From the NCBI GenBank assembly GCA_024653775.1, contig JANLHZ010000268.1, forward strand, positions 3,555 through 67,554: a stretch of 64,000 nucleotides of DNA, given 5' to 3'. This document shows, piece after piece, positions 48,317-49,806 of the stretch. Each line of letters starts with the position of its first letter. Position 1 is the stretch's first letter. A program made the position numbers and the translations under genes. The notes below the pieces were generated by a model, which was given only the letters and a program-made list of their open reading frames with translations, was not told where the DNA came from and did no database searches. Origin of the DNA: Planctomycetota bacterium (GTDB taxonomy: Bacteria; Planctomycetota; UBA8742; JACQVU01; JANLHZ01).

Positions 48317-49327
48317 ATGATCACAACATTCGACATCAAGGGATTCAAGTCCATCCGCGAACTGCACCTCGACTGCAAGCGCATCAATCTTTTCATCGGC
48401 GAACCGAACACGGGTAAAAGCAACATCCTTGAAGCGCTTGGCTTCCTTTCTTTCTGCGCCCACGGCGGCGACCTTCACGAATATGTCAGGTACGAAAGGC
48501 CGTGGCATTTGTTTTTCGATGGTAACTCAAAGCAGGGAGAGTGGAATCTAGGAATAAACAAACAACAAGAGTGTACAATGACTGCGGAGTTCATTGATGG
48601 GAGATTCGTTTTCCTGCCTCCTGGGGTTAAGACACCCTCTATCGTCATTAAAGAAAACGGTGAACCGATAGATGGCAACCCCGTTTTTAGAGATACAAAT
48701 ATCAAACATCAGCCAAGTCGAATTGAAACATTCGATTTTATCAAATTCTATAGATACAAACCGTTGTCTGACCTGAAATCAGATCAACCTTTTCCTCTGC
48801 TTCCTCCCACAGGTCGCAATCTCGCGATGCTACTTTATACTTCCGAAGAACTATCAGAAATTGCTGCACATTTATTTGAAGCTCAAGGATATACGCTCGT
48901 AACAAAACCCCATGAAAATGTGCTTGAGGAATTGAAACTCAAAAGTAAGCGCACGGCTATAGGGTTTCCAATGTCATTGGTATCAGATACACTGCAAAGA
49001 TACTTATTCCACATCGCCGCGATTGAATCGAATAAGGATTCGGCAATAGTATTCGAAGAGCCGGAATCGCACGCATTTCCGGACTATACATTGCATCTCG
49101 GATCCAGGATTGCCCGTGACGAGAACAATAATCAGTTCTTCATTGCCACACACAATCTATATCTTGCGAATTCGATTATCGATAAAGCGCCTGCGGAGGA
49201 TGTTGCGGTATTCGTGACGTATCTTGAAAACTTCGAAACCAAGGTCAAATCCCTTAGCAGGGAAGAGATCCAGGAGCTATTCGAATCCGATCCCTTCCTG
49301 AACCTTCATAAAGTTCTGGAGGCGTGA
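48317..49327 (+). CDS. ABC-type AAA family ATPase (AAA_21-like, RloA/AbiLi/OLD-like)
   Basis: Walker A GEPNTGKSNILEAL. Walker B/D-loop AIVFEEPESHAFPD. Low-GC. Confidence 0.75.
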   Translation: MITTFDIKGFKSIRELHLDCKRINLFIGEPNTGKSNILEALGFLSFCAHGGDLHEYVRYERPWHLFFDGNSKQGEWNLGINKQQECTMTAEFIDGRFVFLPPGVKTPSIVIKENGEPIDGNPVFRDTNIKHQPSRIETFDFIKFYRYKPLSDLKSDQPFPLLPPTGRNLAMLLYTSEELSEIAAHLFEAQGYTLVTKPHENVLEELKLKSKRTAIGFPMSLVSDTLQRYLFHIAAIESNKDSAIVFEEPESHAFPDYTLHLGSRIARDENNNQFFIATHNLYLANSIIDKAPAEDVAVFVTYLENFETKVKSLSREEIQELFESDPFLNLHKVLEA

Positions 49328-49806
49328 TGGTCGTTTACGTCGAAGGCAAGACCGACCTGACGCTAATCTCGATCCTTGGCGTTCCTCGCAAGAAAGGCAC
49401 TCGAAAGGGAACGAGAGGCGAAGTTGTAAAGGCTGTGGACCGCGGAAACCAGCAAGATTTCGGGATAATCGAAGAAGATCCCGACGGCGGCAACTTGCCG
49501 GAAATTCTTTCAACAAAATACGATGAGGTGAAAAGTCTCCATGGACTAAGGCTTCTGAAGCACAGATCTTCAAATAAGTATTTCATAATGATTGTTCCAA
49601 AGCTGGAGCAGTGGTGTGTGGAACGCGCAAAAATCTGCAAAATCAGCTTGTCCGATCTCGATCTCCCTGAAACCGCGAAAAAAATTCATGCTCTGGAGAG
49701 GCTGCACGAAAGCTCTGGTTTCATATCGTTACTCAAAAAACTTCTCGATAACGATATCGGAATGCAAACTCTCAAATCATGGATCGACGAGCGACTTTCG
49801 GAGTAG
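49324..49806 (+). CDS. RloB/AbiLii-like small TOPRIM-fold protein
   Basis: VVYVEGKTDLTLISIL and IIEEDPDG fit the TOPRIM Glu and DxD motifs. 4-nt overlap with the ATPase stop. Confidence 0.6.
   Translation: MMVVYVEGKTDLTLISILGVPRKKGTRKGTRGEVVKAVDRGNQQDFGIIEEDPDGGNLPEILSTKYDEVKSLHGLRLLKHRSSNKYFIMIVPKLEQWCVERAKICKISLSDLDLPETAKKIHALERLHESSGFISLLKKLLDNDIGMQTLKSWIDERLSE

Follow-up and report, generated by a model that had tools for sequence, protein, structure and literature searches.

Pairs of an ABC ATPase and a nuclease form a major and expanding class of prokaryotic immunity (OLD, Gabija, PARIS, Septu, Menshen and HEC-01 to HEC-04). Here we asked whether two small overlapping genes of a Planctomycetota bacterium belong to this class, and if so, to which of its systems. 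The genes lie in a stretch of 64,000 nucleotides (positions 3,555 to 67,554 of contig JANLHZ010000268.1, GenBank assembly GCA_024653775.1; hereafter the window). The initial annotation, made from the letters of the DNA, had described them as an OLD-like ABC ATPase with an RloB/AbiLii-like TOPRIM partner. Our analysis makes it rather likely that the two genes were acquired horizontally and form a self-contained conflict module, in which an OLD-type ATPase and TOPRIM are split and reduced in size. The pair is probably a relative of the known ATPase-plus-nuclease anti-phage systems. The two genes, here called A and B, are the following:

48317..49327, forward strand: gene A, an open reading frame (ORF) of 336 amino acids with an ATG start; a compact ABC ATPase of the OLD/SMC/RecF-type group.
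49324..49806, forward strand: gene B, unannotated; 160 amino acids from GTG 49324 or 159 amino acids from ATG 49327.
Within gene B: a predicted TOPRIM core (residues ~1-93) and a helical tail (residues 94-159).

Both ORFs were found where they had been placed, with the Walker A motif GEPNTGKSN and the Walker B motif IVFEEPE in A, and with VVYVEGKTD at the start of B (N terminus MMVVYVEGKTD). The overlap of four nucleotides that had been claimed holds for the GTG start at 49324, but from the ATG at 49327, the start used by NCBI, it is one nucleotide (TGATG; the letters at the junction are GCG-TGA-TGG). NCBI annotates B with 159 amino acids (P0001 = MCR4317900.1, NUW37_16275, from a Planctomycetes metagenome-assembled genome, MAG), and the N terminus of its homologues, M-x-V-x-VE, agrees with the ATG start. 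Translational coupling of A and B holds for either start. The genes form a low-GC patch, as had been noted: the GC content is 0.445 in A and 0.468 in B, and the GC content at third codon positions (GC3) is 0.484 and 0.534, respectively, as compared to 0.772 in the gene ending 29 nucleotides upstream and 0.764 in the convergent MFS transporter gene 3 nucleotides downstream. The pair is compositionally foreign relative to these flanking genes, and its insertion between genes of housekeeping type leaves hardly any intergenic space. Gene structure and foreign composition are thus read directly from the DNA.

Gene A is an ATPase of the AAA_15/AAA_21 ("OLD-ABC") kind, an assignment that is directly supported by two Pfam matches (3.9e-14 and 6.2e-13), both beyond the curated cut-offs. 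Because of these matches, and because A and B are each members of a large conserved family, the pair is not a chance feature. A has the head fold and the sequence motifs of the ABC ATPase superfamily (OLD/SMC/RecF-type), including the signature and the H-loop, and in addition a variable insert:

48398..48424, forward strand: Walker A / P-loop GEPNTGKSN, residues 28-36 of A.
48557..48721, forward strand: hypervariable insert, residues ~81-135 of A; a candidate sensor surface.
48983..49000, forward strand: ABC signature-like motif SDTLQR, residues 223-228 of A, without the Gly of the usual S-x-G.
49046..49066, forward strand: Walker B and catalytic Glu, IVFEEPE, residues 244-250 of A; codons checked against the DNA.
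49151..49153, forward strand: H-loop histidine H279 (motif ATHN).

The motifs were highly conserved among 33 homologues. Invariant residues were G28, P30, N31, G33, S35 and N36 in Walker A (K34 in at least 90 %), S223, T225 and R228 in the signature-like motif (D224 and L226 in at least 90 %), V245, F246, E247, E248 and E250 in Walker B, and A277, H279 and N280 in the H-loop. SDTLQR aligned to MSDGTLK of another ATPase encoded in the window. The insert differed from the motifs: across 69 family members the frequency of the top residue was 0.26-0.30 in the insert and 0.76-0.88 in the motif regions. The homologue alignment is rich in insertions and deletions across the insert, and residues 125-132 were modelled with a predicted local distance difference test score (pLDDT) below 50. 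This region is plausibly a trigger-sensing surface, and inserts of other defence ABC ATPases have likewise been argued to be trigger sensors (Payne et al., bioRxiv 10.1101/2024.01.29.577857). None of the best 120 homologues of A is longer than 371 amino acids.

In PADLOC, A matched the ATPase subunits AbiLi, HEC-01A, AriA, PDC-M07A, NsnB and GajA with comparable strength, and most of these matches were limited to the P-loop region or to the region from Walker B to the H-loop. The top match was AbiLi (PDLC02336, 1.4e-17), and it could be read as membership in AbiL, a two-gene system of the ATPase AbiLi and an AbiLii/RloB-type partner; RloB is a TOPRIM-superfamily domain (PMC12065111). However, the AbiLi match consists of two short stretches, the best at residues 1-43 around the P-loop, and HEC-01A, AriA, PDC-M07A and others score close to it.

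The AbiL assignment was therefore judged on the partner protein. B had no match in Pfam or PADLOC at E <= 1, including AbiLii, and the TOPRIM-clan models Toprim_x, DUF4435, RloB and DUF4276 were likewise unmatched at that threshold. In NCBIfam and PHROGs one chance-level match each was obtained (E 0.014 and 0.15). A profile search of the PDB sequences with B returned noise only. Comparison of the B family by hhalign was negative, with less than 1 % probability, each time: against the DUF4276 protein of the window, against a 25-sequence DUF4276 alignment, and against the C-termini of P2 Old and E. coli YbjD. Since the Pfam, PADLOC, PDB-profile and hhalign searches were all negative for B, the RloB/AbiLii label that B had been given is unsupported.

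With a word-seeded homologue search B found only itself. The view of B as an orphan was overturned by an exhaustive HMMER search, which found at least 377 clusters of B (50 % identity) at E <= 1e-3, with 69 of them at E <= 1e-10. The existence, size and conservation of the family are therefore directly supported. Nearly all members are 150-160 amino acids long, and all those carrying a name are called "hypothetical protein". A variant of 277 amino acids (P0197; four cluster members, from Logan assemblies) has an N-terminal extension of ~120 residues and matches B at its residues 120-271.

We also scanned 133 members of the B family singly. Pfam gave no significant match and no enrichment (DUF4276 in one member, at 0.045). 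In PADLOC weak matches were found to mad4 (nine members), AbiLii (three, best 3.9e-4), AriB (two), PDC-M03B (one) and HEC-01B (one), and in NCBIfam to antiphage_MADS4 (12 members), with every other family at two or fewer. The weak matches cluster on models of TOPRIM-type subunits that partner ABC ATPases. Relatedness among the members makes these counts interdependent; even so, chance hardly explains why both libraries favour a single model, MAD4. Mad4 is a homologue of DUF4276, and DUF4276 has been placed in the TOPRIM superfamily together with RloB (PMC12065111). The AbiLii echo in three members is small next to the 9-12 members matching MAD4. AbiL membership was rejected because B matches neither AbiLii nor RloB, and we give it hardly any weight.

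The fold of B was predicted with AlphaFold2 from an alignment of the 133 sequences, and the model had a pLDDT of 96.6 and a predicted TM-score of 0.90. In order, it consists of a strand (residues 4-6), a helix (9-17), a strand (25-27), a helix (31-40), a strand (46-50), a helix (60-65), a beta-hairpin (66-80), a strand (86-90) and the helical tail (94-159), which begins with helix 94-104. A Foldseek search of the PDB with the model gave nothing significant. Among the structural matches of the model OLD nucleases came first, with 119-136 aligned residues in comparison to 84-107 for generic folds, and the top 25 included GajA (7.3), AriB (6.4) and the TOPRIM of retron Ec67 (5.9). All TOPRIM proteins among the 60 structural matches listed were of OLD type or from defence systems, with no primase or topoisomerase. 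An OLD-like predicted fold is thus directly supported. On this fold the conserved residues of B map to four sites:

49342..49356, forward strand: E7...D11; E7 is the predicted TOPRIM Glu and follows strand 1, and the acidic D11 lies in helix 1, at i+4.
49471..49479, forward strand: E50-E51-D52, the DxD motif of the family, at the end of strand 3.
49597..49614, forward strand: P92-K-L-E95-Q-W97, a P-x-L-E-x-W motif that opens the first helix following strand 4.
49687..49689, forward strand: H122, basic and located in the helical tail; it may correspond to K562 of BpOLD.

Conservation was determined from the same 133-sequence alignment. E7 is found in 99 % and D11 in 97 % of the members. In the DxD motif the family has D50 in 97 % (E in 3 %), E51 in 85 % and D52 in 100 %, and B itself reads E50-E51-D52. 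The third motif is conserved at P92 (97 %), L94 (89 %), E95 (100 %) and W97 (99 %), and position 122 is His in 85 % and Lys in 12 %. Furthermore, positions 27 and 31 are basic in 92 % of the members, and residue 32, a Gly after strand 25-27, is Gly in 64 % and Ser in 22 %. The features that define the TOPRIM superfamily include a Glu at the end of the first strand (PMC6755086, PMC12065111), a DxD after strand 3, a Gly after strand 2 and a three-layer alpha/beta fold whose parallel sheet has the order 2-1-3-4. The Glu and the DxD are present in B, with E7 directly after strand 1 and the conservative E50 variant in the DxD. The letters EEDPDG, which had been taken as the TOPRIM motif, are present (GIIEEDPDG), but reading the DxD as D52-P-D54 shifts it by two residues from the conserved motif, and position 54 lacks conservation. 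The description of the locus as an OLD-like ATPase with a TOPRIM partner is partly supported, as regards the predicted fold and the conserved acidic residues; it does not extend to a significant sequence match with the TOPRIM clan or to AbiL.

The two-metal site of BpOLD is formed by the TOPRIM Glu E400, by E404 four residues on, by the DxD pair D455/D457, and by two elements of the helical domain: T506/E508, which bind metal B from its first helix, and K562 (Schiltz et al., PMC6755086). Judged by residue order and secondary structure, E7/D11 would match E400/E404 in arrangement, D50-x-D52 would be comparable to D455/D457, and L94-E95 would be the positional counterpart of T506/E508. As a hypothesis, H122 may take the place of K562. 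D11, E95 and H/K122 would in this way be conserved at positions matching the second-metal and Lys sites of BpOLD. B would carry a full candidate set of two-metal ligands (E7, D11, E/D50, D52 and E95) and, in addition, the conserved basic H122.

A Rossmann- or receiver-like accessory protein without nuclease activity, for example a metal- or nucleotide-binding regulator, is another possible reading of B, and the pair would then be an SMC/RecF-like housekeeping element of DNA metabolism. We consider this improbable. The OLD nucleases precede the generic folds among the structural matches and align over more residues, the acidic residues are conserved at 97-100 % exactly at the TOPRIM positions, and the MAD4 echoes recur in two libraries. 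Neither is the pattern that of a housekeeping function, because the pair has a patchy distribution across the domains of life and a foreign composition, and the same genome contains another, diverged copy. A housekeeping SMC/RecF-like function was rejected on these grounds.

The distribution was determined by scanning genomes with the ATPase profile. At least 382 relatives were confirmed and 80 loci were kept for analysis. Archaeal loci made up 34 of the 80 (Methanosarcinales, ANME-1, Methanoperedens, Thermococci, Thermoplasmata, Bathyarchaeia and Asgard), and the remaining loci were bacterial (Planctomycetota, Chloroflexota, Kiritimatiellia, Verrucomicrobiota, Desantisbacteria and others). 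The pair is also present in a cultured planctomycete, Anaerobaca lacustris. A scan of viral contigs gave no confirmed relative of the pair. In 78 of the 79 loci with room to judge, a homologue or remnant of B lies directly downstream of A on the same strand. The two genes overlap by four nucleotides in 57 of 75 pairs and by one nucleotide in seven. The distance matrices of A and B were strongly correlated (Mantel r 0.864, which none of 999 permutations reached). The pairing and the co-evolution are direct observations: A and B evolve as a unit, and their pairing is near-obligate. A conserved third gene was sought beside the pair and none was found, the best flanking family being present in 6 of 82 loci.

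In the Thermococci loci L009, L015, L021 and L026 a gene of ~189 amino acids follows B at a distance of ~2-5 nucleotides on the same strand. Separately, a Macro domain (1.8e-36) was detected in four immediate neighbours of the pair, which are probably those Thermococci genes. If they are the same, the Thermococci may have a lineage-specific third component that binds or hydrolyses ADP-ribose.

In six loci (L030, L043, L047, L050, L052 and L065) B is frameshifted, split or cut to a C-terminal remnant beside an intact A. These degraded copies fit recurrent inactivation of a potentially toxic B, and sequencing errors in MAGs could also explain them. Degradation of this kind is what would be expected of a selfish toxin-antitoxin or addiction cassette, in which B would be a toxin of TOPRIM type that A neutralises in an ATP-dependent manner, and which would be kept by post-segregational killing and horizontal transfer. 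Such a cassette would overlap mechanistically with the conflict module that we favour, differing in the selection that maintains the pair. The tight, translationally coupled two-gene organization with no third gene agrees with it, and so do the foreign composition and the insertion among housekeeping-type genes with almost no intergenic space. Toxin-antitoxin- and Abi-like cargo (a nucleotidyltransferase pair and AbiJ_NTD4) is found at most 3 kb away in the window. The immediate neighbours of the pair, in the window as in other genomes, are mostly housekeeping genes, which agrees with addiction as well.

However, a minority of the pairs were found inside recognised defence loci, an embedding that is observed directly. 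The pair lies between HmaB and HmaC in L062 and L064 and straight after HmaB in L044. In L017 it lies between a type IIG restriction-modification enzyme/methyltransferase and an HKD-Snf2 helicase, whereas in L018 it adjoins a type IIG enzyme and in L068 a BrxH-like helicase. This recurrent embedding in Hma, type IIG restriction-modification and BREX-like loci points to immunity. The hypervariable insert of A suggests arms-race sensing, and the ABC-ATPase and TOPRIM pairs that have been tested (PARIS, and the fused HEC-04) have a role in phage defence. On balance we find an addiction cassette unlikely. The HmaB-[A-B]-HmaC block occurs twice on the 52.9-kb contig DAINAU010000004.1 (L062 at 22637-35605 and L064 at 1-9203) with identical hidden Markov model (HMM) scores; either the Hma system was truly duplicated together with the pair inside it, or the repeat is an artefact of the assembly.

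For the conflict module, read as cargo for defence or addiction, a mechanism can be proposed by analogy with PARIS (AriA/AriB), HEC-01, MAD3/MAD4, AbiL and the fused OLD/GajA. An oligomer of the ATPase would hold or gate the nuclease B. The variable insert of A would sense either a disturbance of the cell or a trigger supplied by an invading element, and ATP binding or hydrolysis would then release or activate the TOPRIM subunit. The activated TOPRIM would cut nucleic acid (DNA, or tRNA/RNA) and thereby stop the infection or the cell. The PARIS model drawn on here is one in which the AriA scaffold holds AriB until a trigger frees it to cleave tRNA. We infer a nuclease activity of B, a complex of A and B, a sensor role of the insert and an anti-phage function.

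PARIS, proposed as 'Class 4 OLD', is likewise a pair of an ABC ATPase (AriA) and a TOPRIM nuclease (AriB). B differs from AriB (~35 kDa, DUF4435-type) in having 160 amino acids, about half the size, and in lacking any match to DUF4435 or AriB; the AriB echoes in the two family members were at 0.021 or weaker. Similarly, A has 336 amino acids and AriA is ~53-55 kDa, and the AriA matches of A are partial.

HEC-01 has the same two-gene architecture of an ABC ATPase (HEC-01A) and a TOPRIM protein (HEC-01B), and A matched several HEC-01A models in PADLOC (2e-15 to 1e-9). HEC-01 was identified by its embedding in Hma systems, and HEC-01B is reported to share the metal site of BpOLD; in the published assay HEC-01 gave no protection (Payne et al., bioRxiv 10.1101/2024.01.29.577857). 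Relatives of the A/B pair are also embedded in Hma systems (L062, L064 and L044), but the pair of the window is not. The HEC-01A matches cover parts of A (2.1e-15, residues 2-81). As B has no match to HEC-01B, which was found in only one of the 133 members (9.7e-4), the PADLOC models of HEC-01 would not call this locus.

The methylation-associated defence system (MADS) consists of eight genes, mad1-8. It resembles our pair in placing an ABC ATPase (MAD3) beside a small TOPRIM-superfamily protein (MAD4), as do the DUF4276 partners of AAA_21 ATPases, and MAD4 is the strongest recurrent remote match of the B family (9 of 133 members in PADLOC and 12 of 133 in NCBIfam). The consensus motif order VE..., D-x-D, E-x-W is common to both, as compared by eye. 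However, A scored 20 bits against MAD3 where the cut-off is 420, and all the scores are far below the curated cut-offs. B itself has no MAD4 match, the hhalign comparison of its family with the DUF4276 alignment was negative, and there is no methyltransferase or other mad gene in the neighbourhood.

The OLD proteins of classes 1-3 are single polypeptides (PMC10568477), whereas A and B are separate ORFs divided by a stop codon. No sequence similarity could be detected between B and the C-terminus of either P2 Old or YbjD. Gabija was rejected because there is no UvrD-like GajB, the neighbours being a putatively secreted hypothetical protein and an MFS transporter, and no helicase gene is conserved beside the pair across the loci. 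A retron-associated OLD was rejected as well, as no retron lies beside the pair.

The architecture and the likely logic of the pair are thus already known from PARIS, HEC-01, MAD3/4, AbiL and OLD, and for this reason the system holds no conceptual surprise. What is new, as judged by Pfam, NCBIfam, PADLOC and PHROGs, is a widespread family of TOPRIM-like partners of ~155 amino acids that none of these HMM libraries recognises, together with a compact ATPase clade, both well represented in archaea; the ABC ATPase classification of Krishnan et al. (2020) may list the dyad already. Because no model in these libraries recognises the B family, annotation and defence-finder pipelines miss the system. 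Owing to its small size (~325 and ~155 amino acids), its near-obligate pairing and the cultured host A. lacustris, it is a tractable minimal model of an ABC ATPase gating a TOPRIM protein, and it would enlarge the thin catalogue of archaeal defence systems. Tentatively, A and B may even make up an ATPase-gated TOPRIM immune system that is minimal and mechanistically distinct, with a trigger and nucleic-acid target of its own, although we consider this doubtful. If so, the nuclease of ~155 amino acids would be the smallest OLD-type effector known. The pair is widespread in archaea (ANME-1, Methanosarcinales, Thermococci, Bathyarchaeia and Asgard) and in bacteria of the PVC group and Chloroflexota, all of them lineages with poorly charted defence repertoires, and it might be an unfused form related to the single-chain OLD nucleases.

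Other genes upstream of the pair are the following:

45248-45457, forward strand: small ORF of 69 amino acids without a Pfam match.
45396-45845, forward strand: nucleotidyltransferase-like protein of 149 amino acids, with marginal DUF2204, DUF6036 and Aminoglyc_resit matches.
46145-47026, forward strand: protein with AbiJ N-terminal domain 4 (PF18863, 6.6e-27), 293 amino acids, GC 0.444.
47040-48287, forward strand: upstream neighbour of 415 amino acids, of native composition (GC3 0.77), ending 29 nucleotides before gene A.

The 415-amino-acid protein (47040-48287) has no Pfam match and starts with a hydrophobic stretch that, by eye, resembles a signal peptide, as in a secreted hypothetical protein. 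Since this gene ends 29 nucleotides before A, there is almost no room for a promoter of the pair's own. No sigma-70-like promoter was found between 47900 and 50100, and promoters of Planctomycetes may differ from this type. Searches for insertion marks or non-coding parts (flanking direct or inverted repeats, tRNAs and Rfam RNAs) found none. The AbiJ_NTD4 gene is of abortive-infection type and lies ~1.3 kb upstream of the pair, with the gene of native composition in between. The 69-amino-acid ORF overlaps the nucleotidyltransferase-like gene; the two have a GC content of 0.45-0.49 and look like a toxin-antitoxin-type pair.

The other ATPase pair that had been noted in the window is present at 6863-8759 and is also low in GC (0.46). 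It consists of an AAA_21 ATPase (6863-8095, forward strand; 2.7e-41) followed by the DUF4276 protein (8034-8759, forward strand; 6.7e-7, exactly the Pfam cut-off). Because NCBI gives the latter a length of 219 amino acids (P0271), its start is probably near 8100, a few nucleotides past the ATPase stop, and not at the 62-nucleotide overlap that follows from the longest ORF. DUF4276 has more than 5000 close homologues. The two pairs of the window are unrelated apart from the P-loop and the Walker B/H-loop, as had been suspected, and the AAA_21/DUF4276 pair resembles a MAD3/MAD4-like module without other MADS genes. The second, diverged copy of A and B in the same MAG lies on another contig of 59,246 bp (MCR4314896.1, P0003, and MCR4314897.1, P0122, NUW37_00965). 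Its proteins are numbered consecutively and are 55 % and 38 % identical to the A and B of the window, respectively. The MAG thus carries two versions of the A/B system in addition to the AAA_21/DUF4276 pair.

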